Positions 3,900 through 57,556 of a DNA stretch of 64,000 nt are shown one piece after another. Every line of letters starts with the position of its first letter. Within the stretch, counting starts at the first letter, position 1. Origin of the DNA: a virus. The translations under genes were made by a program, and so were the position numbers. The stretch spans positions 31,491 to 95,490 of IMG/VR virus record IMGVR_UViG_3300045118_000377. One strand, 5' to 3'. Below the pieces are notes generated by a model that searched no databases, had not been told where the DNA came from, and worked only from the letters and a program-made list of their open reading frames with translations.

Positions 3900-4439
3900 A
3901 TGGCCGTACCTGCCACAGTCGGGACGGCGGTCCCTATCGCCATGATCCTGGAAGACGGGAACGAGTCTCAGTTCCCGCAGGCGGAGATCTACAACGGCGG
4001 CTCTTTCCCTCTCTCTGTGTTGAACCTCGTCCACAAGGGCCGTGGCAGGTACGAAGCAAACTGGACACCTCCGATCGCTGGTGTGTTCGCGGCCATCTTC
4101 ATCGTGTACTCTGACTCGGCTCACACGATCGAGAACATCGTCTACACGCGGGAGATCGAGCAGATCTTCGCGACGGCCAGCAACGTGGACGACCTCGCGG
4201 CCAAGATCGCCAGGGTGCTGGGGTTGCTGCATGAGAACTCCTACATCGACAACACGACCTTTGACGCTTTCGGGCAGCTGCTGACCTGCCGCATTCGGCT
4301 GTTCGACTCCAAGGCGCACGTGGAGCTCGCCACCGATGGTGGAACCGAGACCCTCGGTCTGATCGCCACCTACTCTATGGAAGCCGACTACGAGGCGGCT
4401 GGCCGGCTGAAGACCTACCGGTACAAGAGGGTCGGATGA
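3900..4439 (+). CDS. Hypothetical virion protein (Ig-like N-terminus)
   Basis: 179 aa; GRYEANWTP strand pattern; codon bias. Confidence 0.55.
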   Translation: MAVPATVGTAVPIAMILEDGNESQFPQAEIYNGGSFPLSVLNLVHKGRGRYEANWTPPIAGVFAAIFIVYSDSAHTIENIVYTREIEQIFATASNVDDLAAKIARVLGLLHENSYIDNTTFDAFGQLLTCRIRLFDSKAHVELATDGGTETLGLIATYSMEADYEAAGRLKTYRYKRVG

Positions 4440-4735
4440 GCCTCTGCGCGACAGCTCTCGTGACCAGGGGCTACATCTGTTGCGACATCACGCAGAACCA
4501 GATGGTCTCGTGTGACAAGCCCGAGTTCGTCGGCTTCGTGGAGGTCCGGCCCAAGATCAGGTGGGTGGAGGGACAGCAGCCTCCCAGTACACCCGTGCCC
4601 TCGATGACCAGCGCCCAGGAGCTGCGGCCGCGGATGGTCGGCAAGGCGGACCCAGCGCCTACCACTGTCTCTGGGCCCAAGCAGGTGTCGGCTCAGGAGC
4701 TGAAGCCCAAGATCGTCAAGGCCGAGGAGGAGTAG
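4436..4735 (+). CDS. Hypothetical Pro-rich protein with internal repeat
   Basis: ATGA overlap; three repeats EVRPKI / SAQELRPRM / SAQELKPKI. Confidence 0.55.
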   Translation: MSLCATALVTRGYICCDITQNQMVSCDKPEFVGFVEVRPKIRWVEGQQPPSTPVPSMTSAQELRPRMVGKADPAPTTVSGPKQVSAQELKPKIVKAEEE

Positions 4736-4736
4736 C

Positions 4737-5687
4737 GTGGCCACCATCAAGATCAAGATCTACGTCTCCGAGCTGGCCAACGTCATGACGTTGTACGACA
4801 AGATCTCCGTGCAACGATCGACGACCGCTCCTCCGTCCACTACCGAGGACGACCTCACAGCCAACTCATCGGCACCAGCGACTCTCGTCGGCTCGCTCGA
4901 GGGACCGTACCTCCTCAACGGCAAGACCCTGACGTTCAAGGTCAACGGCACGCAGGTCTCCGTGACCTTCACGTACGCCGACCCGGTCGCGATCACCCAG
5001 GTCGTGGATGCCGTGAACGCGGCGCTCGCGGCCGCGGGCCTGGGTGCGACAGCCGATGCCTACGGCGGCAAGCTGCGGATCAGGACCACTTCCAACGGCA
5101 CGCAGTTCACGTTGGAGATCATTAGCGGTTCTGCTGTCACGGTTCTGGGGTTCACTGCCGGGCAGAAGGCGCACGGCCTCGCCGCTCACATCACGCTGGT
5201 CGTTGGCACGACCCAGTATGAGTTCGACGACGGCAGCGGGCTGGCCTCCTACTACTACCGATCTCGCTTCTTCAACACCGCCAATGGTACCTACAGCGCG
5301 TGGAGCGACTGGATCCAGGGAACGACTGGAGCCGCCATCCCGTCGGCCGATCTCATCATCGGAAAGGTCAAGCTGGCCGATCTGGATGGGAAGGCACTTC
5401 CGAACCGTGTGATCACCATCGGCAACGCCATGGAGCCCAGCAAGGCGGATGGGTACGGGATCTTCGGGGCGGCGATCACGCTGGAGACTGACGGCACGGG
5501 GCAGGCTGAGACAACGCTTGTGAAGGGATCGCTGGTGGATGTAATCTTCAATGGTACTTCCATCGTCCGGCGAATCCGGGTGCCGTCATCGGGGACTGAG
5601 TTCGACCTCCTGGACGACTCGCTGGTAGTGGGAGACGAGTTCGAAATCCAGGTGCCGGACATCCCCTATGCCCCTCGGAGATCGTAA
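4737..5687 (+). CDS. Virion structural protein with a flagellin-IN/FliD-like module
   Basis: GGAGGAG RBS; carries the LNGKTLTFKVNG...VVDAVNAAL...KLRIRT...VLGF module shared with baseplate proteins. Confidence 0.6.
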   Translation: MATIKIKIYVSELANVMTLYDKISVQRSTTAPPSTTEDDLTANSSAPATLVGSLEGPYLLNGKTLTFKVNGTQVSVTFTYADPVAITQVVDAVNAALAAAGLGATADAYGGKLRIRTTSNGTQFTLEIISGSAVTVLGFTAGQKAHGLAAHITLVVGTTQYEFDDGSGLASYYYRSRFFNTANGTYSAWSDWIQGTTGAAIPSADLIIGKVKLADLDGKALPNRVITIGNAMEPSKADGYGIFGAAITLETDGTGQAETTLVKGSLVDVIFNGTSIVRRIRVPSSGTEFDLLDDSLVVGDEFEIQVPDIPYAPRRS

Positions 5688-8319
5688 GACAGGGCGGTTG
5701 CTTCCAGCCAAGGGCGAATTCGCTCCAGGCATTCCGAAATCAAGAACGATCAGACCTCTGCCGCCGGTGCCGCGCGGCCAGCCCCAGCAGTGGGAGCTCG
5801 CCACTCAGCTCCACCACGCAGAGAAGGCCGGTCCGCACACCGACCTCCGCCTGGTAGATCCCGAAGGCCACGCCCACAGCTGGGTGCTGCCCGACACCGG
5901 CCTCCCAAAACCGGGTGAAAAATTCTACCTCCCGCAGGTCGAGACCCACACGCGGGAGTACGCCGCGCGCAAGGGCGAGTTCGAGCTGCCGGCTGGCTAT
6001 GGCAAAGGGACCGTGACCGGCTCGGGCCTGCGCCCGGTAGACGTCCATTACAGTGAGCCTGGAAAGCTCCGTTTCAGCCTGTTGGAAGGCAAAAACCCTC
6101 AAGATTACATACTGGTACGGTCACCCAAGGGGTGGGTTATCCACAACTTTTCACCGACAGCGGAAGCGGGTGTGCGTGGATCGAAGGGTTTCGCCATCCC
6201 GCAGGCGAAGCCAGCGTACAAGGAAAAGCCAACAACTTCGGTGGAGTTCGACGACCCGAGGGTGATCCATCAGGCCAAGATCGACGGCGCGCACGTGACC
6301 GTCCACATCCCGAACAAGGACAGCCAGGTCCGGGTGTTCTCCTACCGCCCGACCGAGGCTGGGACCGGGGTCATCGAGCATACCCACAAGTTGCCCTCGT
6401 ACCACACGCTGCGTGCCCCTGGGAGCCTCGCTGGCACCGTTCTCCGCGGTGAGGCATGGGCGGCAGGCCCGGACGGCAAGGCGCTGCCAGCGGAGCGTAT
6501 AGGCGGCCTCCTGAACGCGGGCGTGGCCCGTTCCAGAGAGCTCCAGCAGGAGCATGGCCCCCTACGCCTGTCGGTCTTTGACGTGGTGCGGCACAAGGGC
6601 AAGCTCATGGAGAACGCCCCCTACGCCGAGAAGCTCGAGGTGCTCCGGCAGGTGGCGAAGGAGATGCCCCAGCTCGAGCTCCCGCCCACGGCCGAGACGC
6701 CGGAGGAGAAGCTCAAGCTCTTCACTCGCATCCAGGAAGGGAAGGAGCCGGTCACCCGAGAGGGGATCGTGGCCTGGCATCTGGACCGGCCACTGCCAAC
6801 CAAGATCAAGTTCCGACCTGATGTTGATGCCGAGGTCGTGGGAGTGTTTCCAGGTAAGGGGAAGCACGAAGGACGAGCCGGTGGGCTGGTGGTGAAGCTG
6901 CCGGGGTCCGAGGCTACCACGAGAGTTGGAACTGGCTTCTCCGATCAGATGCGCAAGGAGCTGTGGGAGAGACAGCACGAGATCGTGGGGCGCGTGGCGC
7001 GTGTGGCGACTCAGCAGGTGTTCCCGAGCGGCAAGATGCGGGCACCGGCGTTCAAGGACTTCCACACGGAGAAGGGCAAGATCGCTTCGGGCAGGCACAG
7101 AGTCGAACATCTCACTACGGATGAAGAGAAGCTGGAAGCTGCTAAGTTGCAAGAAGGGATCGGTTTCGGACTTGGCCCGATCAAGCCATTGCATCCCAAG
7201 TGGGAGTATTACGGCATTCGTAGTGACGACAACAAGCTGGTTGCTGTGAGCCGAGTCAACAAAGAGCCGTTGAAGGAGTGGGAAGGTTCAAAGGACTACG
7301 AGCAGATCGCTCGGCACAGGCCGGATGTATCTATCTCGGCCACTACCGTCCACCCGGAACATCGCAGGAAGGGCATGGCAAAAGCTCTCCGAGCTCACGT
7401 CCAGGATCGATACAACACGATCATATCTGGTACCGGGGCAGAGTCAGACCTACCAGCTATGTCTAGGATCTTGGAGCAACAGGGGTTCGAGCCTATTTGG
7501 CACCGTGGGGCGAACACGCAGTACGTGTGGAAGAAGCAGGCAATGCTCGAGGCCCTAAAGGATGAACTGAACAAGGTCGCGGCTCCTGATATCAGCCCCG
7601 CGCAAGAAGTGGTTCCAGACCCTGCTCAAGATCGCCCATCGCTTGTTGGCGGCATCGCTGCGACTGGCGGCGGCACGTTGCTGGCGGCCGATATGAGAAA
7701 GCGGTTGCTTGGCGAGAAAGTAATCTACCACGGCACACATTCGGATGAAGCCGCAAAAGGGATCATGGAGCATGGGCTCCAACCTTCGTACGGTGGCACG
7801 GGGGCAGCGAAGCTGACGCCAAACTATGTAGCGCGTAGCAAAGGAAAGGTGCACGTCACGGGCGTTAAGCCTGTTGCGATGATGTTCCGATCGTTCGACC
7901 CAGAGACCTATCGTCGTGAGGGTTACGATATCGGACACCTCGTGCGCGGGAACTTGCCTGGGGCACCAGGCACGGTGGTCAAAGCGCGCATCCCGATGTC
8001 CCTTTGGGACAAGTTAGAGATCGATCCAGACATGCTGGGACATACCCCGCAGAACGAACTTCAAGAGGCCATGATCAAGGAGATCGGAGCTCGTGGGGCG
8101 CACCCCATCGAGTCGAAGTACATCAGTGGGGGCCGTGGCAGTATCAGTCGAATCCCCGAAAAGATCGTGGAACTCGGGAGGGAGTTGCCTGGCTATGTCA
8201 AGAGACACCCTCTGCGTTTCGGGGTTGGAGCGCTTGGAACAGCCGGGGGTCTCTATCTTGCCGGCAGGGGAATAGGATCTCTGCGTAGAAGATTCTCCAC
8301 GCCTACTGAGGAAGGATAG
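5668..8319 (+). CDS. Polyvalent protein: LigD-type 3'-phosphoesterase + ATP-dependent DNA ligase + GNAT acetyltransferase + ADP-ribosyltransferase-like domain
   Basis: PE motifs HHAEKAGPHTDLRL / HSWVLP / ETHTREY / GYGKGTV. Ligase KIDG, LRGE, VFDV, EGIV, KIK and OB-fold VGTGFSD...RAP. GNAT motif A VHPEHRRKGMAKAL. ART-like IYHGT...IMEHGLQP. Gly-rich hydrophobic segments. Confidence 0.8.
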   Translation: MPLGDRKTGRLLPAKGEFAPGIPKSRTIRPLPPVPRGQPQQWELATQLHHAEKAGPHTDLRLVDPEGHAHSWVLPDTGLPKPGEKFYLPQVETHTREYAARKGEFELPAGYGKGTVTGSGLRPVDVHYSEPGKLRFSLLEGKNPQDYILVRSPKGWVIHNFSPTAEAGVRGSKGFAIPQAKPAYKEKPTTSVEFDDPRVIHQAKIDGAHVTVHIPNKDSQVRVFSYRPTEAGTGVIEHTHKLPSYHTLRAPGSLAGTVLRGEAWAAGPDGKALPAERIGGLLNAGVARSRELQQEHGPLRLSVFDVVRHKGKLMENAPYAEKLEVLRQVAKEMPQLELPPTAETPEEKLKLFTRIQEGKEPVTREGIVAWHLDRPLPTKIKFRPDVDAEVVGVFPGKGKHEGRAGGLVVKLPGSEATTRVGTGFSDQMRKELWERQHEIVGRVARVATQQVFPSGKMRAPAFKDFHTEKGKIASGRHRVEHLTTDEEKLEAAKLQEGIGFGLGPIKPLHPKWEYYGIRSDDNKLVAVSRVNKEPLKEWEGSKDYEQIARHRPDVSISATTVHPEHRRKGMAKALRAHVQDRYNTIISGTGAESDLPAMSRILEQQGFEPIWHRGANTQYVWKKQAMLEALKDELNKVAAPDISPAQEVVPDPAQDRPSLVGGIAATGGGTLLAADMRKRLLGEKVIYHGTHSDEAAKGIMEHGLQPSYGGTGAAKLTPNYVARSKGKVHVTGVKPVAMMFRSFDPETYRREGYDIGHLVRGNLPGAPGTVVKARIPMSLWDKLEIDPDMLGHTPQNELQEAMIKEIGARGAHPIESKYISGGRGSISRIPEKIVELGRELPGYVKRHPLRFGVGALGTAGGLYLAGRGIGSLRRRFSTPTEEG

Positions 8320-8323
8320 GCTA

Positions 8324-9253
8324 ATGGCCGTCACTGTCAGAGTGTTCGTGGTCGACGAGCAGATTCCAACCCCGTCCCCGATCGAGAACGTGCTGGTGCG
8401 GGTGTTCGATTCCACAGGTGTGGTCTTCATCACGCAAGATCTGACGGACGCGAACGGCATCGCGGACTTCACGCTTGATGGGGACGACCCGCCGGTCGAC
8501 TACCAGGTCCGGCTCTCGAAGACCGGTGTCGCCTTCGACGGACTGCTGGGAGACGACAGCAAGAGCCCACAGCTCATTTCCGTCTACGATCCTCCCGGCT
8601 CCGCTCCATCTGGTACCAACGACTTCCAGGTCAAGGGGCAGACCTACCATCGGCCGGCCGCGACCAACCCTCGCCTGTGCCGTGCCAGCGGGTTCTTCAA
8701 ACGCGGTGATGGGCAGCCGTATCCTTGGCTTGACCTCATGTTCGTTCCCACGTTCAAGCCCACGATCGTGGATGGTGATGGTGTGATCGCCAGCACAGTC
8801 ACCGGTCGTACGGATGCCGACGGCTACTTCGAGATCGATCTCTACCGAAACGGTATCTACCACGTCACGATGGAGGGGCTGGAAGACGTACCGCGTGAGG
8901 TGGTCGTGCCGGACTTGTCGTCGATCAACATCATCGACCTGCTCTTCCCGGTGGTGGCCAAGGTCGAATTCGACGTCCCGTCCGTCAGCCTGGCCGTCGG
9001 CGAGTTCGCGGAAGTCTTCCCAACGATCACGGCGTCTGACGGGCACGTCCTGGAAGGGGCAGCGGTAGCTGACGTCCTCTACGCCATCGCAGACACGGTC
9101 GTGGCCAGCGTGCAGGCGAAGACCGACAGACTCGTCATCCAGGGAGCAGCGGCGGGCTCGACAGAGCTGAACGTCGAGCGCGCTGACACGTCAATCGTGC
9201 TGATCCCCGACACGGGCATCACCTACACGCCACTCCCTATCACCGTTTCATGA
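8324..9253 (+). CDS. Virion protein with transthyretin-like and Ig-like domains
   Basis: TDANGIADF and TDADGYFEIDL repeats; C-terminal Big_2-like pattern (SVSLAVGE...GAAAGSTELNV). Confidence 0.6.
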   Translation: MAVTVRVFVVDEQIPTPSPIENVLVRVFDSTGVVFITQDLTDANGIADFTLDGDDPPVDYQVRLSKTGVAFDGLLGDDSKSPQLISVYDPPGSAPSGTNDFQVKGQTYHRPAATNPRLCRASGFFKRGDGQPYPWLDLMFVPTFKPTIVDGDGVIASTVTGRTDADGYFEIDLYRNGIYHVTMEGLEDVPREVVVPDLSSINIIDLLFPVVAKVEFDVPSVSLAVGEFAEVFPTITASDGHVLEGAAVADVLYAIADTVVASVQAKTDRLVIQGAAAGSTELNVERADTSIVLIPDTGITYTPLPITVS

Positions 9254-13920: not shown

Positions 13921-16900
13921 ATGTCCGGTTCCGTCGATCTGAAGACATTCCTCGAGGAGAGGTTCCTCGCGTACGATCCCGACACCGATCTCTCGGAGGG
14001 CTCTCCTGCACAGCTGACGGTCATCGACCCGACCGTCCGCCGATTCCAGCCGGACCCGTTCGAGATGGACCTGCCGACGTTCATCAAGACCCGCCTGCGG
14101 CAGGAGTTCCCGAACCTCCAGGCTGAGGATGGTGACGCTCTGGCTGACTTCCTGGTCAAGCCAATGGAGGCCCTGCTGGACCCGTTCGTCAGAGAGGTCC
14201 AGTTCCTCCGCAACAACCAGAGCCTGGCCTACCCCGAGCTCCTGGCACCGGATGAGGCCGACTCGCTGATGGGCAACCTCTTCGTCCGCCGATCGCGCGG
14301 GAAGAAGTCGGTCGGAAGCGTTCGTGCGTACTTCAGCGCCCCGACGGCCTTGACGATCTCCGTGGGGAACAGTTGCTACACGGCCGATGGGTTGAACTTC
14401 ATTCCCTCGAGCCCGCAGTCGATCTCGGCCGAGGCCATGCTCTTCAACCAATCCGGGAATCTCTTCTACTTCGACATCGCGTTGGAGGCCGAAACTGAGG
14501 GGGACGAATACAACATCGAGGCTGGGTCGATCGTGGGTATCACCAACGTGCCGTCGGCCGTGCGCGTCACCAACCTCCGGAAGTTCTCGGACGGCGAGCC
14601 GGAAGAGACCACGATCGGCTACGTCGAGCGCGGAGAGACCAGTCTGACCGAGAGGTCGATGGTCATCCCGCGCGGAGTGCTGGCCCGGCTCTTCGATGTC
14701 TTCGGAGACATCCAGCACCTCCAGGTGGTCGGGTTCAACGACCCCGAGATGCAGAGAGACATCCTGACGGGCGGCGGTCTTGGTTCGATCGTCCACTACT
14801 CCGCGACCGGATTCACCCAGGACGATGGGAACGGCGACACGTACTCCAACGTGTTCGAGGACAACTCTGCCGATTTCATCACGCTCCTTGGCCCCATAGG
14901 CGATGTGAAGAACTTCACGTTGTCTGTGGCCGGAGTCGACTACAGCATCACGCGGGTCATCAATGCCAACGCCGTCTGGATCACCAATCTGGATGGTACG
15001 GCTTCGACCCTCTCCGACACGCTCTCGAACGTGGCCTACTACATCCGGAAGAACGAGCTGACGCTGTCTTCCATCCCCGGTGGCGTGGTATTCCCGATCG
15101 GTCCCAACGGGGAGATCGTGATCGAGGGCAACGAAGTCCACATCGGCGGGTGTTCGGACTTCTTTCTTCGCGGCCTGACGGCGGAGGACGCAGATCAGGT
15201 GGTCAAAGAGATCAGCGACGAACAGCCGCTGACCGAAGGGAAGGATCTGAGCGTCGTCATCGCCGGGCTGCCGGAGGACATCGTTCGGGTTGGTCTCGCC
15301 AGCACCGACTTCATCACCAAGGGAGTGAAGGTTGGTCACTCTCTCGTGATAGAAGGAGCGGGCGTGGCTGTGGCAGGCAGCTACCAGATCATCAAGGTGG
15401 CACCCAGAGGGACTGGTGTGACGGAGTCCAGGGAGCTGCAGGTTGAGCCGGCCCCGTCGTCTTCGTTCTCGAATCTGTCCTACAAGATCGTGGACGAGCT
15501 GGACATCAACCTGAATGAGCCGAAGAACATGCGTGAGACCGGCTCAGATCTGAAGGCCGTCATGGGCAGTCGCCAGGTCAGCACGGTCTCCGAGGTCGAC
15601 TTCCTGGCGGTCGGCGGGCAGGTCGGCGACACACTACGGGTGACCAGCGATTCTGCCAACGCCGGTGACTACGGCGTGCAGCAGATCACCGGCACTGGCA
15701 ACAAGCTCATGGTCTTGGATGGCGAGTTGCGCCGGACGTCCGACTCCGAGCCTTGGCAGCTGTTCAACAAGCAAGCCGGCATCCAGCTGCCGCTCTTGCG
15801 TATCAAGACCATCGATCTGCTGGATTCGTCGTTGAACCCCACGGGCGAGACCCTTCCCTACGCGGACCCAGTGGACATCCAGTCGTCGGCGTTCTCCAAC
15901 GCCGGTGTCGGTCTGAAGAAGGCTGTGGCGGATGCCAAAGTGGGGATCATCGGAACGGTCGACCTCAGTGGCGGGGCATCGGCGCTCAACGGGAAGCAGA
16001 TTCAGATCTCCGTCAACAACGCACCGGCGATACCCGTCAACTTCTCCGGTGTGACCACGCTGCAGACGGCCGTAGACCAGATCAACGCCATCACCGGACT
16101 CAGCGGTATCGCTCAGGTCTACACCATCGGAGCGGCGCAATACCTGGCGATCAGATCTACTACCCGATGGCTGCAGGTGACGCCCTACGGCTCCGCCAAC
16201 AGCACACTGGGTTTGTCCACGAGCGTGTCTGAGGACAGTCGGCAGGTGACGAGCACGAGCGTGTCGGACTGGACGCAGTTCGGAATCGAGGTGTTCAGCG
16301 ACTCGGTCTACGTCATGTCCGGAGACAACATCGGCTTCTGGTGGCTGGAGTATCTGGCCGCCGATCGTCTCCTCATCGCGCAGGTGGACGACGCCGGTCG
16401 CGTCGTCTTCCCACTGCCTAGCGTCAACACCTCCATTCGCATCGGGAGCCGATCGTTCGGGAAGGTGCGCTGCTACTTCCTCGAGCCAACTTCCTTCGAG
16501 GTCCGCGGCAGCTACCGGAAGGCCGCCAGGCGCACCTCTGTGCATCAGGCGAATGCCGCTCTCGGCACGATCACGGCGGATGAGGAGCAGCGCACGGAGT
16601 TCACGCTCGACGTCAACGGCGACGGTGTGAGCCTCAAGAACTTCTTCCCCGATCCCGAGCTCCACTTCCAACTGCTGCCAGTGACATCGGAAGACGTACC
16701 GAACAACCTCGTGGTGGACCTCGCTGGATTGGGCACCCGCGTCGTGGAGAGCGTGCAGGATGCCGGCTCCATGCCGACTGGTCCGGGCATGTACTCGAGG
16801 GACGCAAAGATCGATTTCCTGCTTCGAGAGGTGCTGCCGGGTGACATCCTGGAGATCACCTACCAGCCTATTCAGGGCACGGTGAACATCTCCGCCAGCT

Positions 16901-18018
16901 CGTTCCCCTACACGCCCACTCCCAACGTCCTGGCCGGCAAGAGCCTGACGTTCTCGTTGGAGAACGGGCCCGACAAGACCATCACCTTCGATGACCAGGT
17001 CGATGGGCCCACGAAGTTGGTGGCCGAGATCAACGCCCAGCTGGGGGCCACCATCGCGTTCGTGGAGGACACTGGTTCTGCTCAGTACCTGCGGTTCGAG
17101 GCCGACTTCCCTGTGATCCTCCGCTCCTCCCATCCGACCACTCTGACGACCCTGGGGCTGACAGCGGGCAATAACGACGCCAAGGCCAAGGGAGAGTACA
17201 AGGTCCTAGACGTCGGGTGGATCTCGGGAGCAACTTCCAACCACTGCCGCATGACGCTCGATACGACGTTCGTGGCTGGTCAGGTGGGACCTTCCCAGCA
17301 CTTCACGATCAAGCGGCCCGGTGTCCAGCGTGTCAGCTCCACGGAGATGGCGGAGAACAAGGAGGGGGCGCTCTACTACGCCGACATCGAGCTGGTCTCG
17401 GACGGGGTGGGTGACGAGTTCAACATCGATCCCGATCTCCAGCTGACCGCGGAGAGGTACAAGTCCGACGGCTACCATCTCTACACCGAGGATGAGAACC
17501 TCAGCTTCTCGACCTCGGAGAAGCTGCACATGGTCGTGGGGCGTCGCATGCTCTCGGTCGGCTCCACCGACACGCCGGCCAACATGCGCCAGCTCAGTCT
17601 GTCGAACATCCAGCTCAACTACGAGCGGTCGCCGCTGGTGGAGCAGGTCCAGAACTTCGCGCAGTCGGAGCTAGACCGCGTGCTGACAGCCAGCATCCTG
17701 GTGCGGCACCTCCAGCCCCACTTCGTCCAGGTCGTGGTGAACTACAGTGGTGGATCGCTGGAAGACGTGGTGGTCTCCGACATCGAAGATCTCATCAACG
17801 GCCTACTGCCGGACGAGGCACTCGAAGCCTCAGCCATCGGCGAGATACCCCGCCGCCGTGGGGCGACCAGTGTGGAGATGCCAATCACTGTCATAGGGAT
17901 CGTCCACTACAAGGATCGAAAGGTGCGGGCCGTGAGGTCCAAGAACTCGATCACTGCCGGCCGTCTCGCTACCTTCATGCCGGACGTGTTGGACGTGACT
18001 CGAGCCGGAACTGCCTAG
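13921..18018 (+). CDS. Large baseplate J/wedge-like protein
   Basis: N-terminus has EAETEGDEYNIEAGSI...VTNLRKFSDGEPEET, typical of baseplate J; 1365 aa with inserted modules; GGAG RBS. Confidence 0.7.
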   Translation: MSGSVDLKTFLEERFLAYDPDTDLSEGSPAQLTVIDPTVRRFQPDPFEMDLPTFIKTRLRQEFPNLQAEDGDALADFLVKPMEALLDPFVREVQFLRNNQSLAYPELLAPDEADSLMGNLFVRRSRGKKSVGSVRAYFSAPTALTISVGNSCYTADGLNFIPSSPQSISAEAMLFNQSGNLFYFDIALEAETEGDEYNIEAGSIVGITNVPSAVRVTNLRKFSDGEPEETTIGYVERGETSLTERSMVIPRGVLARLFDVFGDIQHLQVVGFNDPEMQRDILTGGGLGSIVHYSATGFTQDDGNGDTYSNVFEDNSADFITLLGPIGDVKNFTLSVAGVDYSITRVINANAVWITNLDGTASTLSDTLSNVAYYIRKNELTLSSIPGGVVFPIGPNGEIVIEGNEVHIGGCSDFFLRGLTAEDADQVVKEISDEQPLTEGKDLSVVIAGLPEDIVRVGLASTDFITKGVKVGHSLVIEGAGVAVAGSYQIIKVAPRGTGVTESRELQVEPAPSSSFSNLSYKIVDELDINLNEPKNMRETGSDLKAVMGSRQVSTVSEVDFLAVGGQVGDTLRVTSDSANAGDYGVQQITGTGNKLMVLDGELRRTSDSEPWQLFNKQAGIQLPLLRIKTIDLLDSSLNPTGETLPYADPVDIQSSAFSNAGVGLKKAVADAKVGIIGTVDLSGGASALNGKQIQISVNNAPAIPVNFSGVTTLQTAVDQINAITGLSGIAQVYTIGAAQYLAIRSTTRWLQVTPYGSANSTLGLSTSVSEDSRQVTSTSVSDWTQFGIEVFSDSVYVMSGDNIGFWWLEYLAADRLLIAQVDDAGRVVFPLPSVNTSIRIGSRSFGKVRCYFLEPTSFEVRGSYRKAARRTSVHQANAALGTITADEEQRTEFTLDVNGDGVSLKNFFPDPELHFQLLPVTSEDVPNNLVVDLAGLGTRVVESVQDAGSMPTGPGMYSRDAKIDFLLREVLPGDILEITYQPIQGTVNISASSFPYTPTPNVLAGKSLTFSLENGPDKTITFDDQVDGPTKLVAEINAQLGATIAFVEDTGSAQYLRFEADFPVILRSSHPTTLTTLGLTAGNNDAKAKGEYKVLDVGWISGATSNHCRMTLDTTFVAGQVGPSQHFTIKRPGVQRVSSTEMAENKEGALYYADIELVSDGVGDEFNIDPDLQLTAERYKSDGYHLYTEDENLSFSTSEKLHMVVGRRMLSVGSTDTPANMRQLSLSNIQLNYERSPLVEQVQNFAQSELDRVLTASILVRHLQPHFVQVVVNYSGGSLEDVVVSDIEDLINGLLPDEALEASAIGEIPRRRGATSVEMPITVIGIVHYKDRKVRAVRSKNSITAGRLATFMPDVLDVTRAGTA

Positions 18019-38801: not shown

Positions 38802-39274
38802 TCAAGGAAGCGACCTACCGCGCCTTCATCGACGAGCTGGAGAAGATAGCCAGCTCGATGTCGGACGAGGAGTGGGAGAAGCTTGCGCGCATCTTCGAGC
38901 GCATGGGCCTCGGCATGAAGCGCAAGGTTGTGCCGGCGCTCAAGCGCGGCTACGAGAGCGCGCAGGTCGGGGCCGGTCAGTTCATGAGCGGCCACCACGG
39001 TCACCTCTTGGGTGAGGCCGCGCAAGAAGGTCTCCAGCACGGCGGCATGTGGCACTCCATTGACCCCTCCCACGCCCTGACTGGAGGAGCCGAAGGAGCC
39101 GCAGCGATGCTGGCCCCGGCCGCGGCCGCCGCCGCCGTGAAGGGCATCAGGAAGGCCGCGCCTATCGTGAAAGAGAAGGCGACGCGAGTGGGTGGCTATC
39201 TGAGGAGTGCGTTCGGCGGCGGTGGCCCTCCCAGCGTTCCGCCCGTCTTCGCCCCGTCGTTCGTCGGACCATGA
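38783..39274 (+). CDS. KxA-tagged small Gly/Ala-rich protein
   Basis: GTG38783 after GAGG; begins IKEATYRAFIDELEKIAS; has an Ala/Gly hydrophobic stretch. Confidence 0.6.
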   Translation: MDRSVLIKEATYRAFIDELEKIASSMSDEEWEKLARIFERMGLGMKRKVVPALKRGYESAQVGAGQFMSGHHGHLLGEAAQEGLQHGGMWHSIDPSHALTGGAEGAAAMLAPAAAAAAVKGIRKAAPIVKEKATRVGGYLRSAFGGGGPPSVPPVFAPSFVGP

Positions 39275-42114
39275 GCCGCCTGCTGCCCAAGATCGCCCAG
39301 GAGCACAAGCTCCAGGGGCACACCGAGGTCCAGGGCATACCCATAGCGATCGAGAACCGCAAGGGATCTGTCCGTGAGGGGACGACTGAGGACGGTCATC
39401 ACTGGCGCACGAAGATGAAGTTCCCCTACGGCTACATCGAGGGGACCAAGGGCGCAGACGACGAGCCAGTGGACGCCTATGTCGGGCCGGACAAGGACGC
39501 GCCCTACGCCTACGTCGTCCACCAGCACAAGCCGGATGGGACGGGCTTCGATGAAGACAAGGTCATGCTCGGGTTCGACAGCAAGGAGGACGCGCGCAAG
39601 GCCTACCTCGAGCACTACGACTCCGACAAGTTCCTCGGCCCCATCTCCCAGGTCACGATGGAGCGTCTGCAGGAACTTGTGGACAGCGGCAAGAAGCTGG
39701 AGAAGATCAGCCATCCGCATGTCCGCATGGAGAAGCCCGGAAGGTGCGGGGCGGCCGCGTTGAGGATCGCTCTTCGCGTTCACGGCATGGACATGCCGGA
39801 GGGCACGGCCGCGAAGTTGGTGAACACTGACAAGGAGGGGGCTGACCCGGAGTCTCTGGCCTCGGTCGCTGAAGCTGCTGGTCTGGATGCTGAGATCGTG
39901 GACGGCATGAAGTTCCACGAGCTCGCATGGCACACCGCAAAGGGCAGGCCGGTGGTCGTGGCATTCCAAGCGTGGCGCGGGGACACCAAGCGCCCAGCGT
40001 GGGAGGACAACTGGGACGACGGTCACTACGCCGTAGTGCTGGGCGTGGAGAACGACAAGGTTCGGATCAGTGACAGCTCGGATAGCGACAACAGCTACCT
40101 GCTAGATCGCGCGGAATTCGAGCGCCGATGGCATGACGTGGACAAGGACGGCACAGTCCGAGATCATCTTGGGATCGTGATCTCTCCGAAAATGGAGAAG
40201 CGTGCCTACAACAGGGGCGTGCATTTTCATCTGATGAACAAGACCATCCAGAAGGCGTTTGGGGACGACCTGACTCCAGAGGCCAGGCGTGTGATGTTGG
40301 ATCAGGCTCGAGAGTCAGATGTAGGGCTTCGACACCCGTGGAATCCATGGAATGCGATCCAGCACGCATTCCCCACGCTCTCGAAAGAGGAGCTTCGAGA
40401 AGAGACGCAGGGCAAGCACGAAGAGGCGATCGGATCTCTTGCCAGGGCAATCGGGGACAGGCATCTCTCCGACGTCCGCAGGTCTGTCATGGCCACGGGC
40501 GCACTGAAGGACCTGGCCCAGGCACAGCATGCCCGTATCGATGTCCACTCTCACCACGACAAGCCGCTGGAGATCGCCGAAGCCAAGGGCGGCCCAGAGC
40601 GTGTGCAGGAGTTCGTCAAGCTGCGCAGTGCGCTCCGCGATCGGCTAGGTCCGTACGGTGGGTTCGTGTCCTCTGGTATCGAGCATCTCAGATCTGGGTT
40701 CGATCTGAGGCTGAAGATGCCGGTCCTGCGCAGCGAGCTCGACAAGTTCAATCCAGAGAAGTGGGAATCGGACAAGAGCACGTTGCGCACAGCCGATGAG
40801 TACGGGCGGGAGATCAAGCACGATCTTCTGAGAACGCTGAAGTCCGAACACGACCTGAAGCCGCGCGAGGCAAAGAACGCGGTCCACGAGTTCCTGCGGT
40901 CGTTCTCGCCCGGGGTCGTTGACGAGGCTGCTGCTGAGGTGAAGGACACCGCCAAGTTCCTGGCGAGCACTGCCGGCAGGTTGTGGCGCGGTGGTGAGAA
41001 GACGTCAGCCGTCGAGCCGAAAGGGATCAAGTTCCTCTACATGGATACAGGCGGTGGCCATCGCGCACAGGCGCAGGCAATGGTGGAGGCCGCACAACAG
41101 CGTGGTATTCCGGCCGAGGCCATCCATTGGGGAGAGTTCGCGAAAGGCACGTCGCTCAAGAGCTACGAGAAGGCGTACACGGACTACCTTCAGGACAAGA
41201 AGGGCCTGCCTGCGTTAGGGTTGGCGCACATCAGGTTCCACATGATGGGGACCGACAAGGAGAAGCTTCGCAACTGGGTCGACCAGAACAGAGACCAGGC
41301 GATCGTCGTGACTCACGAGCATCTTCAACGTCACTTCAAGGGCATCGAGCATCCAGTTCATGTCCTGCACTCAGATCCCGTGAAGTGGCCAATGGCTTCC
41401 AAGGTGGACAAGCCTGATCGTATCCACATCGGCCTCCCAGAAGTTCTGAAAGAGCTCGGTGTGAAGAACAAAGTGCCGATCAGCAACGTCCCTGTAGGAA
41501 AGGGCGTGCTCCAACCCAAGGGCAAGTCGGGCTTGATCGACCCTGAGAAGTTCAACGTCACGGTGAGTGGTGGCGGTCTTGGCGCTGAGGTCGCTCCGCT
41601 CACAAAGCAGGTGTTGAAGTCAGATCTGCCGGAAGACGCAGTTGTTCATGCAGTTGCCGGCAAGAACAAGGGCGCGTTGAAGGAGCTACGAAGCATCGCC
41701 AAGAAGGATCCTCGTCTTCAGGTCCATGGCTTTGCACCGTTGCCTACGATGATGCGGGAGGCAGATCTGAACGTCGTTCGTACGCACGGCACGACCTTCG
41801 CGGAGACCGTGGCGTCGGGCAAGCCCGCGGTCTACTACGGGCCGAAAGCGCCGCTGGTGGGCAAACTGCATCCGGTCACCGATTTCCAGGCAGATCTGAC
41901 AAGAAGAACTGCGTTGTATGCGGGAGAACAGGTGGGGCATCCTGTTGCTATCGGTCTGGAGAACGTACCCGATGCCGTGGAAGAGGCGGTAGAGAACGCT
42001 CCGAAGTTCAGGCGACTGGCTGTCGAGGCCAAGAAACAGATGGGTAACCCCGCGGACCAGGCTGTGAAGCAGATCATGAAGCCACGTAGGGGATACCTGC
42101 GCCCGAAGGAGTAG
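39271..42114 (+). CDS. Polyvalent protein: inorganic-pyrophosphatase-like + C39 peptidase + Zn phospholipase C/P1-like + MGDG-synthase/UgtP-like glycosyltransferase
   Basis: InPase IENRKGS..YGYI.GT.GADDEPVD..DEDKVMLGF. C39 CGAAAL...GHYAVV...ISDS. PLC/P1-like YNRGVH...QHARIDVHSH. GT-B TGGGHRAQA...VTH...GGGLG...AGKN...VHGF...MREADL...GTTFAE...GKP. Confidence 0.75.
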   Translation: MSRLLPKIAQEHKLQGHTEVQGIPIAIENRKGSVREGTTEDGHHWRTKMKFPYGYIEGTKGADDEPVDAYVGPDKDAPYAYVVHQHKPDGTGFDEDKVMLGFDSKEDARKAYLEHYDSDKFLGPISQVTMERLQELVDSGKKLEKISHPHVRMEKPGRCGAAALRIALRVHGMDMPEGTAAKLVNTDKEGADPESLASVAEAAGLDAEIVDGMKFHELAWHTAKGRPVVVAFQAWRGDTKRPAWEDNWDDGHYAVVLGVENDKVRISDSSDSDNSYLLDRAEFERRWHDVDKDGTVRDHLGIVISPKMEKRAYNRGVHFHLMNKTIQKAFGDDLTPEARRVMLDQARESDVGLRHPWNPWNAIQHAFPTLSKEELREETQGKHEEAIGSLARAIGDRHLSDVRRSVMATGALKDLAQAQHARIDVHSHHDKPLEIAEAKGGPERVQEFVKLRSALRDRLGPYGGFVSSGIEHLRSGFDLRLKMPVLRSELDKFNPEKWESDKSTLRTADEYGREIKHDLLRTLKSEHDLKPREAKNAVHEFLRSFSPGVVDEAAAEVKDTAKFLASTAGRLWRGGEKTSAVEPKGIKFLYMDTGGGHRAQAQAMVEAAQQRGIPAEAIHWGEFAKGTSLKSYEKAYTDYLQDKKGLPALGLAHIRFHMMGTDKEKLRNWVDQNRDQAIVVTHEHLQRHFKGIEHPVHVLHSDPVKWPMASKVDKPDRIHIGLPEVLKELGVKNKVPISNVPVGKGVLQPKGKSGLIDPEKFNVTVSGGGLGAEVAPLTKQVLKSDLPEDAVVHAVAGKNKGALKELRSIAKKDPRLQVHGFAPLPTMMREADLNVVRTHGTTFAETVASGKPAVYYGPKAPLVGKLHPVTDFQADLTRRTALYAGEQVGHPVAIGLENVPDAVEEAVENAPKFRRLAVEAKKQMGNPADQAVKQIMKPRRGYLRPKE

Positions 42115-46894: not shown

Positions 46895-47340
46895 AGACCC
46901 ACCGCCAGGCAGAGAGTGACCTCCACCCTCGGGTTCTGGGGGTCGCAGTCCTTCGCCAGCGTGTGGATGAACGTGCAGCTGTCATCCACCCCGACCGCGT
47001 CCTTGATGGCGTCCTCCAGGAGCTTGATGCGGTTCGAGAGGTCCATCCGCTTCCACCGGTTCTCAGCCTTCCTTTCACCCGCGTGCTTGCCTTTGACGAA
47101 CCTCTCGCTCCACCCCTTGTTCTCGATCTCCTCGAAGTAGAAGTGGAGCGTGAGGTCGTACTTCTCATTGGGATCAAGCGGCTTGGCAAACTGCAACCGG
47201 TTCTGGTTGATGATCTCGATGACGGCCTTCTTCTTCCAGCTCTTGGCCTCACCCGTCATGCCGCGGCCGCCACCGTGGATGTTGAAGTAGATGTGGTTGC
47301 TCGATGGCGGCATCGTCAGCGTTGCTTGGATCGGCTTCAT
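46891..47340 (-). CDS. rusA: RusA-like Holliday junction resolvase
   Basis: PPSSN...DLSNRIKLLEDAI...DDS...PRVEV. Confidence 0.8.
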   Translation of the reverse strand: MKPIQATLTMPPSSNHIYFNIHGGGRGMTGEAKSWKKKAVIEIINQNRLQFAKPLDPNEKYDLTLHFYFEEIENKGWSERFVKGKHAGERKAENRWKRMDLSNRIKLLEDAIKDAVGVDDSCTFIHTLAKDCDPQNPRVEVTLCLAVGL

Positions 47341-47993
47341 TCCTTGGTTCTCCCCGGAGGTAGCCGACCTGGTCTCGTTGGCGGCAGAGCTAGACGTCGG
47401 GGCCTAGCTTCCTGATCTTCGATCTGCTTCGACATGCGTCTCATGCCTTCGATGTGGGCATGCCTGGCACCCTTCTTGATCTCCTGATCTCGCAGGGTGA
47501 TCATGCGTGAAAGGTGTGTCCAGTTGCCTTCCCAGGCGTCGACTACGGTCTTCATCAGTTTGCACAGGCACTCCATCTCAAGCATCCGTGCCCGAGACAG
47601 GACGTACCGACGATCGGTGATCTTGCGAGACTCCTTGTCGGCGGACGTCCCGTCCTTCGTGAGCCTCACCTTGCTGGAGATGAACTCATGCTGCTCCTTG
47701 GCCTCTTTGAGCCGGATTTCCGTATCGGCCAGCTGTCCGTTGATGTACCCGCAGTACAAGATCACGACCGTAGACAGCTCTCCGATGTCTTGCTCGCTCA
47801 TCTCCATGATGGAGATCGGAACTTCTGGGACTCCCGCATCATTCAGGAACTTGGACTTCCCCTGGATCTTGGGCGGCAGTTGCAGACCACGGCGGACCAT
47901 CTCACTGTAGGCGCTGTCGGCCACCTTGTAGGCATCCTCGCCCTCAGTCATGTCCATCTGCATGCCGCCACCAGTTTTCTCGCGTCGCGACAT
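47337..47993 (-). CDS. Helical coiled-coil protein, possibly UvsY-like recombination mediator
   Basis: Long helices ending LSRMIT; located in the recombination cluster; assignment is inference. Confidence 0.4.
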   Translation of the reverse strand: MSRREKTGGGMQMDMTEGEDAYKVADSAYSEMVRRGLQLPPKIQGKSKFLNDAGVPEVPISIMEMSEQDIGELSTVVILYCGYINGQLADTEIRLKEAKEQHEFISSKVRLTKDGTSADKESRKITDRRYVLSRARMLEMECLCKLMKTVVDAWEGNWTHLSRMITLRDQEIKKGARHAHIEGMRRMSKQIEDQEARPRRLALPPTRPGRLPPGRTKE

Positions 47994-48000
47994 GATCACC

Positions 48001-48837
48001 TCACAGTCGGTAACGCGGACCTCGCCCGCGCTGCACCCTCGTCTCGCTCATCTTCGGGGGCTTGCAGACGTGAGCGTACCGGCAGGTCCGGCAGTGGAAG
48101 CCAGGCTCCTGTGGGGGCTCCTGGTCGTTGAGCGCGCACTCGCGCACGTACTTGAGCTTCCGAACGATCGCGTCCCACAGCGGACGGTGGAACTTCACCG
48201 CGTACTCCGCCATGGCGCTGGTGTTCTTGTCGTAGTAGAGGATCACGCAGACGGGCACGTCCAGGCAGCCCATGTAGAAGGTGGACTGGACCGTGTGCTC
48301 TTCCTTGGCCCGAGACATGGACTTGAACTCGTCGGTGTTGATCGACTTGATCTCCACCAGGAAGCGGATGTTGTCCTCCGTCACGATCTCGTACAGGCCG
48401 TCGGTCGTCGACAGGATGTCCAGCAGGTCCGCGGCCTTTGAAGTCTGGGGGTCGATGGGCTTCTCGTCCTCGAACTTCTCGGTACCGTCGGAGCGCTTGC
48501 AGATCTGGGTCATGTAGTCCTGGAGCTGCAAGTGGATCATGGTCCCGGTGTCGAAGATGCGCCGGAGTCGCGGCTCGATGTGCTCGTGCGCCTCGATCCC
48601 GATGTAGCGGTAGTACATCTTGCGGCCGCAGCCCATGACGTACTGCCCGCAGAGGGAGAGCCCACCAGTGGACCCCACATCCGAGGCGCTGAAGCAGCCG
48701 GTCTCCTTCTTGTGCTGGTCCATGTTCAGATCTTCGAGGTAGGCCTCGATCCGAGGTATCAGCTGCACGTGACGGAGCGCCTGTCGGAGCTCCGGCTCGC
48801 GCATGGATTCGAGATCAGCGATTGTCGTCAGGCGCAT
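48001..48837 (-). CDS. Cas4-like PD-(D/E)XK exonuclease
   Basis: CGRKMYY, GTMIH, TDG...VEIKS, Q..FYM, CRTCRYAHVC (Fe-S Cys pattern). Confidence 0.8.
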   Translation of the reverse strand: MRLTTIADLESMREPELRQALRHVQLIPRIEAYLEDLNMDQHKKETGCFSASDVGSTGGLSLCGQYVMGCGRKMYYRYIGIEAHEHIEPRLRRIFDTGTMIHLQLQDYMTQICKRSDGTEKFEDEKPIDPQTSKAADLLDILSTTDGLYEIVTEDNIRFLVEIKSINTDEFKSMSRAKEEHTVQSTFYMGCLDVPVCVILYYDKNTSAMAEYAVKFHRPLWDAIVRKLKYVRECALNDQEPPQEPGFHCRTCRYAHVCKPPKMSETRVQRGRGPRYRL

Positions 48838-49372
48838 TTGCCAGCTCCTTGAATAGTGAGTAGGGGATGACGGCGAATGCCTCCCTGGCTTTGTTGAACT
48901 CCACGATGAGCGCCGGCTTCTCGCTCGCCTCCGTCGCCAGCCCCACGATCTTCGCCAGATCGATGAGCTTGAGCTTGAAGGCGTGGAGGCTGTCGGTGAA
49001 CTTGTGCTCCAGCCTCCATCGCCCCATCAGCCGGACATCGCCCTTGTACCCTCGCATCCTCGTACCACCAGATCCGGGCTGGGGCCTCCCCCCGAGGTCG
49101 TCGGCCAGTACCTTCTCCAACCTCCGCGAGGTCTTGATTCGTTCCTTGGCCTCCCGACTTCGCTCGGGGTCGGGCCCCAGCTCGAGATTCAGGTCGATCT
49201 CTACACCGTCCTCGATGCAGACTTCGCAGAGGTGGGACTGTCGCAGAACGCGGCCGCTGTCACCCGTGCGCTGCATGAAGTTGATGCAGACGGTACTCGT
49301 GACATGACGGCAGCGATCGCAATGATTGCCGTAGCCCTCATCGACGACCTGGATGTAGAACGGGGCCTTCAC
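48815..49372 (-). CDS. PD-(D/E)XK nuclease (Hjc-like) with N-terminal Zn finger
   Basis: CDRC...CEVC; EK.LA..LGG.PQPGSG...KGDV...LEHK. Confidence 0.7.
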   Translation of the reverse strand: MKAPFYIQVVDEGYGNHCDRCRHVTSTVCINFMQRTGDSGRVLRQSHLCEVCIEDGVEIDLNLELGPDPERSREAKERIKTSRRLEKVLADDLGGRPQPGSGGTRMRGYKGDVRLMGRWRLEHKFTDSLHAFKLKLIDLAKIVGLATEASEKPALIVEFNKAREAFAVIPYSLFKELANAPDDNR

Positions 49373-51228: not shown

Positions 51229-51386
51229 TTCTTGTCCGGCTCGGACTCCTTCTCGTACGGCTCGGTCCCCTTCTCCGGGTCCAGCGGCACGTTGACGTTG
51301 GGATCGGGCTTGGGCTGTCCGCCCTTGCTGCCTACCTTCTCCTTCTCGACCTTCGCGGGGTCGATCTCGACTCCGTACTTTTCCAT
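51225..51386 (-). CDS. Small charged hypothetical protein (frame also open upstream to 51539)
   Basis: GAGGAGG RBS before ATG51386. Confidence 0.55.
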   Translation of the reverse strand: MEKYGVEIDPAKVEKEKVGSKGGQPKPDPNVNVPLDPEKGTEPYEKESEPDKK

Positions 51387-51510
51387 GGGTTCCTCCTCTG
51401 ATCTTCGCAGGGGTAGGTACTCCCGGAAGATCCTCTCGTTCGCCTCCCTCAAGACCTTCAGGTACATGAGAGGCTTGATCAGACTTTGGATCAGGGGGAT
51501 ACCCCAACCC

Positions 51511-53565: not shown

Positions 53566-53582
53566 AGGTCATCCTTGGTAGT

Positions 53583-53612
53583 GGGAGGGAGGGGCCGCAA
53601 CCCCTCCCTCCC
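53583..53612. promoter_or_regulatory. Strong intergenic hairpin between the SSB gene and polA
   Basis: Perfect 12-bp stem GGGAGGGAGGGG/CCCCTCCCTCCC, 6-nt loop, no U-tract. Confidence 0.6.
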
Positions 53613-53623
53613 GGGTGGTCGTT

Positions 53624-57196: not shown

Positions 57197-57547
57197 CTAT
57201 GCCTCCCGGATGTGGACAATGTGCCCCTTGTTGTAGAGGAACTCCTTCGGTATGTTGCGGTTGCCGTGGCTATCCTCTACCAGCACCTCGACCCCGATGT
57301 GGTAGCGGTCGGCCCAAAGCAACTTCCCGGACAGGCCACCTCTTGACTGCTGGGGATCGGTGCTGAAGATGATCTCCTTGCCGAGGAGCTTCACGATCTT
57401 CGAGTGCCAGTTGTCCTGTGCGAACAGCACGTCCTTGAGACTGGCCACGGTCGACCTCAGCTCCTTCACGGTCTGCTGAAGGGTTTTGAAGTCCGTCCAC
57501 AGCTGCGTCAAAGACGACGGTTGCGTGGGTTTGGTGTCCTTCCCCAT
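57197..57547 (-). CDS. Hfq/LSm-like protein with N-terminal coiled coil
   Basis: LLGKEI...LSGKLLWADRYHIGV (Sm1) and FLYNKGHIVHI (Sm2, compare Hfq MVYKHAISTV). Confidence 0.6.
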   Translation of the reverse strand: MGKDTKPTQPSSLTQLWTDFKTLQQTVKELRSTVASLKDVLFAQDNWHSKIVKLLGKEIIFSTDPQQSRGGLSGKLLWADRYHIGVEVLVEDSHGNRNIPKEFLYNKGHIVHIREA

Positions 57548-57556
57548 GAGTCCCAC

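Follow-up and report, generated by a model that had tools for sequence, protein, structure and literature searches.

Why does a large phage carry two modules of a bacterial repair ligase, LigD, fused to two transferase domains and encoded among late genes? The question is raised by a gene of an uncultured lake phage with a genome of roughly 180 kb. We analysed a window of 64,000 nucleotides (positions 31,491 to 95,490 of the IMG/VR record IMGVR_UViG_3300045118_000377), which makes up the right-hand two thirds of a 95,490-bp contig with a CheckV completeness of 52%, and compared it with four complete relatives of 178-198 kb. The gene, open reading frame 5668-8319 on the plus strand of the window, comprises 883 codons in a single uninterrupted frame without a stop; its product is called P0001 here. 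From the N- to the C-terminus it contains a LigD-type 3'-phosphoesterase (PE), a compact ATP-dependent ligase, a predicted small GNAT acetyltransferase and a domain for which an ADP-ribosyltransferase (ART) fold is predicted. We lean, by a modest degree, towards reading P0001 as a cargo polyprotein that acts when the phage DNA enters the cell.

A LigD-type phosphoesterase joined to a minimal ligase

Based on sequence comparison, residues ~40-165 of P0001 are assigned to the LigD 3'-phosphoesterase superfamily. As a single sequence P0001 scores 19.6 bits (E 1.1e-3) against the Pfam model LigD_N (PF13298), under the cut-off of 31.1, and this score climbs to 50.5 bits in its relatives. In the Protein Data Bank (PDB), P0001 alone matches the archaeal PE structure 3p4h (E 8e-5), and a profile of 23 family members matches 3p4h at 2.9e-14, 3p43 at 2.9e-10 and the PE of Pseudomonas aeruginosa LigD (3n9b/2lj6) at 1.6e-7. 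A first-pass annotation of the window had recognised the domain by six residues (H, H, D, R, H, Y). These correspond to H49, H57, D59, R61, H94 and Y98, none of which varies across 23 diverse relatives, and they align with the motifs QKH-x5-H-x-D-x-R and EDH-x3-Y of the P. aeruginosa enzyme, whose residues H42, H48, D50, R52, H84 and Y88 we take to be the metal-binding and catalytic ones. The activity predicted for the domain in P0001 is that of a Mn-dependent 3'-phosphatase / 3'-ribonuclease.

The PE is followed by a ligase. Residues 184-472 match phrog_114, which collects phage ATP-dependent ligases (E 9e-27), and DNA_ligase_OB_2 (PF14743) is found at 34.5 bits (E 2e-8), above its cut-off. 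Of the proteins with known structure, those nearest to it belong to the minimal DNA ligases (Lig E, phage, Chlorella virus and archaeal types). Motifs I, III, IIIa, IV and V and motif VI of the OB domain are present, with K204-x-D206-G207, E262, F304-D305, E365-G366, K379/K381 and R458...K469 invariant or nearly so in 23 sequences. Judged by these motifs, a nucleotidyltransferase (NTase) and an OB domain form a compact ATP ligase that is apparently active. Weak matches to RNA_ligase (PF09414) were obtained for the related proteins P0013 (8.5e-5) and P0007 (3e-3) and for P0001 itself (0.09).

Bacterial LigD, for example that of P. aeruginosa, is a ligase of non-homologous end joining (NHEJ) which combines polymerase, PE and ligase domains and works with Ku. 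P0001 resembles it in having the same six catalytic PE residues and an ATP-dependent ligase in one polypeptide, and the chemistry implied by the sequence would likewise be healing of the 3'-end followed by sealing. It differs in the order of its domains (PE, then ligase), in its minimal NTase and OB architecture of the Lig E / viral type, and in being encoded by a phage, in a late block, with GNAT and ART domains attached. A further difference had already been stated in the first-pass annotation, which saw neither a polymerase domain nor a Ku gene: profile searches of the contig and of the four complete relatives detected no LigD primase-polymerase (PF21686) and no Ku (PF02735), although a host Ku might be used. 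Because both components are missing, we place P0001 outside the LigD/NHEJ systems.

The two C-terminal cassettes

No Pfam family, PTS_2-RNA included, covers the C-terminal module, which the first-pass annotation had named after its YHGT motif and proposed to be ART-like. A search of 1.84 billion representatives with residues 645-883 gave 177 relatives at E<=1e-3. Most of these are stand-alone proteins of 210-260 amino acids (aa) that share the layout of the module in P0001, namely a leader, a Gly/Ala-rich hydrophobic helix, a core of ~140 aa, the motif P-x-Y-x-K-x-P-G-R-F and a second long Gly-rich helix. Among 50,697 cultured or deposited phage records the module has no match. The family profile matches PARP14 (7e-4) and Tpt1/KptA (2e-3) around the YHGT motif; weak matches to PTS_2-RNA are the commonest ones in Pfam (10 of 40 members), and weak PARP matches were obtained in 5 of the 40.

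Structure prediction, which had been proposed as a check, points in the same direction. The AlphaFold (AF2) model of a 239-aa piece reached a pLDDT of 89.9 and a pTM of 0.82, and its leading Foldseek matches in the PDB, at E values of 0.035 or weaker, are all ARTs (Tpt1, pertussis-like and cholera-type A subunits, Rhs ART toxins, Arr and ExoA). A Foldseek-independent search (VIA) returned KptA (Z 8.2, root-mean-square deviation 2.9 A over 83 residues, residues 94-178 of the KptA chain), Arr (Z 7.8), Tpt1 (Z 7.1) and TreX (Z 7.1), all spanning residues 38-181 of the model, whereas the remaining rows match the long helices only. Similar viral predicted structures in BFVD are DarT, a phage RNA 2'-phosphotransferase, PARP-like proteins and proteins of Bacillus phage G. 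Since the model, both structure searches, the family profile and BFVD all lead to ARTs, we assign the YHGT domain, as modelled, to the ART fold, as a family without a Pfam model. As a side observation, Gp53, Gp251, Gp336, Gp532 and Gp568 of phage G are among the best structural neighbours in BFVD, which hints, as far as predicted structures go, at an expanded family of minimal ARTs in that giant phage.

Within the family, H688 of the YHGT motif is invariant and aligns with the HGT motif of PARP14 and Tpt1, position 729 is His or Tyr, and D786 is nearly invariant. The alignment thus suggests a triad H-[H/Y]-D, as in the H-Y-E clade, which we take to resemble the H-Y-D of Arr. In small size and fold the module is comparable to the minimal ARTs, Arr and the C-lobe of Tpt1/KptA; it is distinguished from them by the lack of significant sequence similarity, by flanking Gly-rich helices, which in the model may act as membrane anchors on either side, and by a K-x-A leader. 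Orthology to Tpt1 was considered and rejected, because the NAD-binding lobe alone is present: the globular core of only ~140 aa matches the C-lobe of KptA and the N-terminal lobe is absent. In Tpt1, this N-terminal lobe holds most of the catalytic Arg-His-Arg-Arg tetrad. The first-pass annotation took both transferases to be host-modifying, a putative role; the nearest ART folds, Tpt1/KptA and Arr, modify nucleic-acid phosphates and a small molecule and not proteins. Fusion of the ART to PE-ligase proteins is seen in several lineages (P0010, P0125, P0148, P0152 and P0155), and a PE domain is fused to 8 of 150 representatives of the ART family, in 4 of them without a ligase.

The GNAT domain is less obvious in P0001 itself. 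Seven models of the GNAT clan of Pfam match residues 515-608 at 12.7-15.5 bits, all sub-threshold; a phmmer search of the PDB with the region as a single sequence gave nothing significant, and a word-based search found no stand-alone homologues. Motif A (R/Q-x-x-G-x-G/A) is present in it as HRRKGMAKA. The region is 40% identical to its counterpart in P0008 (E 5e-34) and 38% identical to that in P0049 (E 7e-29). As these two reach 29 and 38.9 bits for Acetyltransf_1, above the cut-off of 20.7, we accept the GNAT assignment of the first-pass annotation by homology and regard the domain as a predicted small acyltransferase.

GC3, the share of G and C at third codon positions, falls from 0.82 in the ligase to 0.64 (GNAT) and 0.61 (ART module), with 0.76-0.83 in adjoining genes. 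The GC3-poor stretch extends over 7090-8316 on the plus strand and is consistent with a recent gain of both C-terminal cassettes.

K-x-A junctions and tags

Both junctions at which K-x-A linkers had been noted, ahead of the GNAT and ahead of the YHGT domain, are present (K471-I-A473 and K636-V-A638), and the same short motif recurs around the PE-ligase core in the family. It lies within 14 residues upstream of the near-invariant motif EFAPGIP in 67 of 107 relatives (~7% expected) and within 22 residues past the end of the core in 39 of 82 (~10% expected), counts that include proteins with the core in an internal position. A K-x-A leader, typically MNKYLEKIA, also starts 57 of 78 stand-alone ART modules and matches the internal ELNKVA junction of P0001; what is a junction in P0001 thus corresponds to the leader of a cassette that other genomes encode as a separate gene. 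The longer tag phi-x-DE[LM]-x-K-[IVM]-A, a pattern selected after inspection of the data, has four copies in the genome, among them the one at K636-V-A638 and all of them in late genes of the plus strand, compared with 0.006 in shuffles.

The N-termini of two relatives, P0005 and P0006 (81% and 79% identical in the core), begin with MPLGDRK/MPVG; there follows a peptidase-like module of ~100 aa, which ends in K-H-A or K-K-A and precedes LLPAKGEFAPGIP. The two inserts differ in their signatures, which are of a Cys/His type in one and GHY...DP, resembling C39, in the other, so modules enter at the N-terminus as well. For P0001, a frameshift fusion with the upstream gene was considered and rejected for lack of support.

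A widespread and shuffled family in uncultured phages

More than 220 metagenomic protein clusters contain the PE-ligase core of ~490 aa, at 40-82% identity, and an alignment-based scan located it at 63 IMG/VR loci; a scan of IMG/VR for close relatives with P0001 as single query found none. Megablast and tblastn searches with the whole gene gave no match among the cultured or deposited phages. The partners of the core, attached at its C- or N-terminus, are InPase, C39 peptidase, GNAT, a P-loop kinase of the AAA_33 type (P0004, P0013 and others), NUDIX, SNF2 helicase, DUF4269 and ART, and in addition a ParB-like domain, read by eye from a DGLHR motif. By sequence, these proteins follow the pattern of "polyvalent proteins", with unrelated effector domains shuffled throughout the family. 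The recurrence of the core in hundreds of uncultured phages with ever-different additional enzymes is what makes it look like a deliverable repair kit.

Another derivative of LigD was noticed in about 35 IMG/VR phage contigs (L024-L063, for example L025:9203-10786). Here, proteins of ~490-530 aa consist of a primase-polymerase followed by a PE, without a ligase (PF21686 4.5e-12, PF13298 1.6e-7). Together with the contigs encoding PE and ligase this means that phages hold both halves of LigD, in separate genomes.

Position in a late block

The coordinates of all features are collected in Table 1. P0001 lies in a block of ~60 kb, reaching from about -15.9 kb to +43.9 kb, in which nearly all genes are on the plus strand. 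Genes of Ig-like-domain proteins flank it. The gene begins 20 nt before the 316-aa gene upstream has ended, and the downstream 309-aa gene begins 4 nt past its stop, so that the three are almost certainly co-transcribed. The order of genes around P0001 is kept in five relatives (L002-L006), and the upstream trio is found within 10 kb of the PE-ligase gene in a more distant clade. The replication module is on the opposite strand at a distance of ~40 kb, as had been remarked before.

The placement of the gene inside a virion cluster, also claimed in the first-pass annotation, holds in part. We observe a late, structural-like block far from replication: the Baseplate_J-like gene is found 5.6 kb downstream, a 604-aa protein upstream resembles tail proteins (phrog_1197, 2e-27), and a 1196-aa protein bears PKD. 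What could not be confirmed are the genes of the particle itself. Pfam models for sheath, Terminase_6N and HK97-type capsid gave nothing usable in the genome and the four complete relatives, and PHROG and Pfam searches of 35 neighbouring and upstream proteins gave almost no matches. As no head, sheath or tube genes were recognised, it is Baseplate_J, the tail-like repeats and the Ig-like domains that stand behind the term "virion cluster".

The 179-aa protein at 3900-4439 (+) is found in 104 clusters with a fixed length of 179-180 aa and at least 47% identity. Its predicted structure is a tandem Ig-like beta-sandwich, which is not diagnostic for a tail tube; in this clade of phages the protein is probably one of the major components of the virion. 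In the ESM Atlas, the 179-aa and the 316-aa neighbours matched unnamed viral clusters only. Neighbours 1941-2876 and 3900-4436 had no match among cultured or deposited phages, and gene 779-1897 had a single one there, an unannotated protein of a huge phage. The protein encoded at 1941-2876 (+) is ClpP/crotonase-like (phrog_1128, 7.6e-11) and has an EDLDKEA site of its own, and its relative in L003 is 44% identical.

Table 1. Features of the P0001 gene and its surroundings, in coordinates of the window
Feature	Position	Strand	Basis or remark
Whole gene P0001, PE - ligase - GNAT - ART polyprotein, 883 aa	5668..8319	+	Single open frame
Motif EFAPGIP, residues 17-23, near-invariant in family, N-terminal to PE	5716..5736	+	Family alignment; K-x-A leader immediately before in most relatives
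Predicted LigD-type 3'-phosphoesterase, ~residues 40-165; catalytic H49, H57, D59, R61, H94, Y98	5785..6162	+	Profile and structure-database matches
ATP-dependent ligase NTase domain, residues 184-375; motif I K204-I-D-G	6217..6792	+	PHROG, Pfam and PDB matches
Ligase OB domain, residues 380-472; motif-VI-like R458...K469	6805..7083	+	PF14743 E 2e-8; PDB Lig E, P-SSM-type and Chlorella virus ligases
Junction 1, K471-I-A473, right after ligase end motif FHxEKG	7078..7086	+	Sequence
Predicted small GNAT acetyltransferase, ~residues 511-622; motif A H-R-R-K-G-M-A-K-A	7198..7533	+	Pfam; homology to GNAT regions of relatives
Junction 2, helical tag AMLEALKDELNKVA ending K636-V-A638, after GNAT; member of the shared tag family of the phage	7540..7581	+	
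Gly/Ala-rich hydrophobic helix ahead of ART core, residues 659-681	7642..7710	+	AF2 helix 15-37 of the 239-aa piece; kept in stand-alone homologues
Predicted minimal ART-fold core, residues 682-824; Y-H688-G-T, V-H729-V-T, D786	7711..8139	+	Alignment, profile, AF2, structure searches
Motif P-x-Y-x-K-x-P-x-R-F, then long Gly-rich helical hairpin, residues 829-877	8152..8298	+	Family alignment, AF2
Upstream trio: 179-aa tandem Ig-like, 99-aa and 316-aa proteins	3900..5687	+	Syntenic with PE-ligase in relatives
309-aa protein of Ig-like domains, downstream	8324..9253	+	Syntenic in 5 relatives
1365-aa Baseplate_J-like protein, clearest structural marker of the block	13921..18018	+	PF04865 23.4 bits, above cut-off; syntenic in relatives
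Second polyvalent protein, InPase, C39 peptidase and more	39271..42114	+	Domain matches
Replication/recombination: Cas4-like, EndoVII-RecA, PolA, DnaG-type primase, uracil-DNA glycosylase, intein-bearing helicase	47337..62803	-	AT-skew flip

Proposed role and alternatives

The explanation we prefer, with slightly better than even confidence, is that P0001 is a cargo polyprotein: it would be synthesised alongside the late proteins, would probably enter the particle, and after cleavage at its K-x-A junctions would act when the DNA enters the cell. Packaging and injection are read from the gene context and from the polyvalent type of architecture, and we infer cleavage, timing, substrates and each of the enzymatic activities as well. 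P0001 would be transcribed alongside the late, structural-like genes, loaded into the particle and cut into three enzymes, which would act at or shortly after the entry of the DNA. The first product, PE-ligase, would be a Ku-independent heal-and-seal enzyme: the Mn-dependent PE would produce a 3'-OH by stripping off surplus 3'-ribonucleotides or a 3'-phosphate that blocks the end, the minimal ATP ligase would then close the nick, and relatives with a P-loop kinase would mend 5'-OH ends too. Its purpose would be to reverse damage by nucleases or lyases that goes beyond ordinary ligation, on nucleic acid which the phage owns or needs; the substrate could be DNA or RNA. The second product would be a small GNAT acyltransferase and the third a minimal ART whose putative triad is H-[H/Y]-D and which the Gly-rich helices on either side might tether to a membrane.

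What the sequences show, and what speaks for this explanation, are the identity of the domains with their invariant PE and ligase residues, the match of the family profile to solved PE domains, a modular family with the domain types of polyvalent proteins, the shared tags, the gene context and the second ligase of the relatives. Several observations weigh against this explanation. The PE, GNAT and ligase NTase domains of P0001 score under the curated Pfam cut-offs on their own, and P0001 and its closest relatives start with MPLGDRK, without an N-terminal K-x-A leader. No capsid, portal, terminase, sheath or tube was recognised by PHROG or Pfam in the genome or the four complete relatives. For the protease that would cut at K-x-A there are candidates only, the ClpP/crotonase-like protein 1941-2876 and the C39 domain of 39271-42114. 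Finally, none of the 50,697 records of cultured phages (INPHARED) contains the PE-ligase fusion, the core matching there by its ligase domain only, at 28% identity or less.

The relatives give a hint at the type of damage. The first-pass annotation had suggested that an injected enzyme repairs phage DNA cut by restriction or Cas nucleases, or that it circularises the genome, and neither suggestion fits well. Restriction and Cas cuts already have 5'-phosphate and 3'-OH ends, so a PE would be superfluous, and the kinase-bearing relatives imply breaks with 5'-OH and 3'-phosphate. Ends of this type are produced by metal-independent nucleases, phospholipase-D-type nucleases and apurinic/apyrimidinic lyases. 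Circularisation by NHEJ is rejected because there is no Ku and because one complete relative has direct terminal repeats. A more specific form of the cargo explanation, which we regard as tentative and rather improbable, is that PE-ligase, with a kinase or a Tpt1/Arr-like ART in relatives, forms a ready-made, particle-borne end-repair kit, a hitherto unrecognised class of counter-defence, which is released at K-x-A and reverses the 3'-phosphate/5'-OH damage done by host nucleases or lyases in the first minutes of infection. If so, the recurrent fusions of PE and ART would mean that the ART targets phosphate ends of nucleic acids and not proteins.

Among the alternatives, P0001 might be a late cytoplasmic enzyme that is not packaged; it would then heal and seal nicks in phage DNA between replication and packaging, or act against host nucleases during infection, and the K-x-A motifs would be linkers or processing sites unrelated to capsid loading. 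Large phages need their nicks sealed before packaging, and this alternative would also account for the missing N-terminal leader and for the absence of identified head genes beside P0001. We nevertheless consider it unlikely: the partner domains of the family (InPase, C39, SNF2, NUDIX, ParB-like and ART) are the ones found in proteins for which delivery along with the DNA is predicted, the leader tag of most relatives is the tag of other late cargo-like proteins, and relatives retain a separate, ordinary ligase. This second ATP ligase, of ~450 aa, is encoded elsewhere in the genome in three of the four complete relatives, which also speaks against P0001 being the replicative or Okazaki ligase of the phage with added domains. 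It is the sole ligase found in the 95-kb contig, and no NAD-dependent ligase was found; against this stand the contig being 52% complete and the position of P0001, on the other strand and ~40 kb away from PolA, primase and helicase. Joining of Okazaki fragments needs no 3'-phosphoesterase either. We regard this possibility as very improbable.

Intermediate between these two, and to our mind distinctly unlikely, is a kit for the repair of RNA, in particular tRNA. Here metal-independent anticodon nucleases would leave 2',3'-cyclic or 3'-phosphate ends, which the PE would open or remove; the kinase of relatives would phosphorylate the 5'-OH, the ligase would join RNA and the Tpt1/KptA-like ART would clear the residual phosphate with NAD+. 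The AAA_33 kinase fusions and the weak RNA_ligase matches agree with it, as do the structural proximity of the ART to KptA/Tpt1, the weak PTS_2-RNA matches and the PE fusions within the ART family, half of which lack a ligase; moreover, jumbo phages are known to repair RNA with KptA (PMC9503650). Against it speak the OB domain, which is of the DNA-ligase type (PF14743), DNA ligases being the closest solved proteins, and an ART which lacks the N-terminal lobe of Tpt1, lies between membrane-like helices and is mostly an independent cassette.

Relation to known phage systems

Considered as a cargo polyprotein, P0001 can be compared with three phage systems. The first are the polyvalent proteins of phages, which with such domain types are predicted to be packaged (Iyer, Burroughs, Anand, de Souza and Aravind 2017, PMC5512222; domain types also in PMC9503650). 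As there, a multi-enzyme polypeptide is encoded among late genes, and the family partners InPase, C39, GNAT, ART, SNF2, NUDIX and ParB-like are shared. A difference is that no fusion to MuF or portal is seen here and that the junctions are K-x-A instead of an embedded metallopeptidase. The LigD phosphoesterase is absent from the survey of polyvalent proteins, in which "ligase" refers to RNA ligases only (PMC5512222), and the survey of NAD and ADP-ribose systems makes no mention of LigD modules or DNA ligases (PMC9503650). Searching the literature for LigD phosphoesterases of phages or virions yielded nothing of relevance.

The tags recall phage T4. Its internal proteins and Alt carry a capsid-targeting sequence that is removed by the prohead protease gp21. 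In both cases a short tag is common to otherwise unrelated late proteins, an ART among them, and presumably removed by a protease. The tag described here is K-x-A instead of L/I-x-E, occurs internally between modules as well and is absent from the N-terminus of P0001.

With T4 Pnkp and Rnl1/Rnl2 and with the KptA repair of jumbo phages (PMC9503650), P0001 shares the logic of healing and sealing, the kinase in its relatives and an ART core of the Tpt1/KptA type. In P0001, unlike these systems, healing would be the task of a LigD PE fold and not of a HAD phosphatase or a 2H enzyme, the ligase is of the DNA type and the ART is without the N-lobe of Tpt1.

These comparisons describe a PE and a ligase that were lifted from Ku-dependent NHEJ and turned into a widespread phage module, without Ku and polymerase, that is shuffled with effectors. 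Should the module travel into the cell together with the genome, no "repair effector" of such kind would have preceded it, and its spread would suggest that selection for it comes from host defences which often enough leave 3'-blocked ends. The recurrent fusion of ART and PE offers a lead on ADP-ribosylation of nucleic acids.

Additional observations in the window

Three further genes deserve mention. A 712-aa protein of the replication module (49369-51507, -) joins recombination endonuclease VII (2e-23) to a RecA-like ATPase (2e-10), an unusual fusion. In the same module a helicase of the replicative type, ResIII/DEAD (60506-62803, -), is split by an intein that contains a homing endonuclease, HNH_3. 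Another gene, HNH / endonuclease VII-like (9560-10036, +), lies between the Ig-like gene downstream of P0001 and the gene of a 946-aa protein; it is probably a mobile insertion, since L002-L005 are without it at that position.

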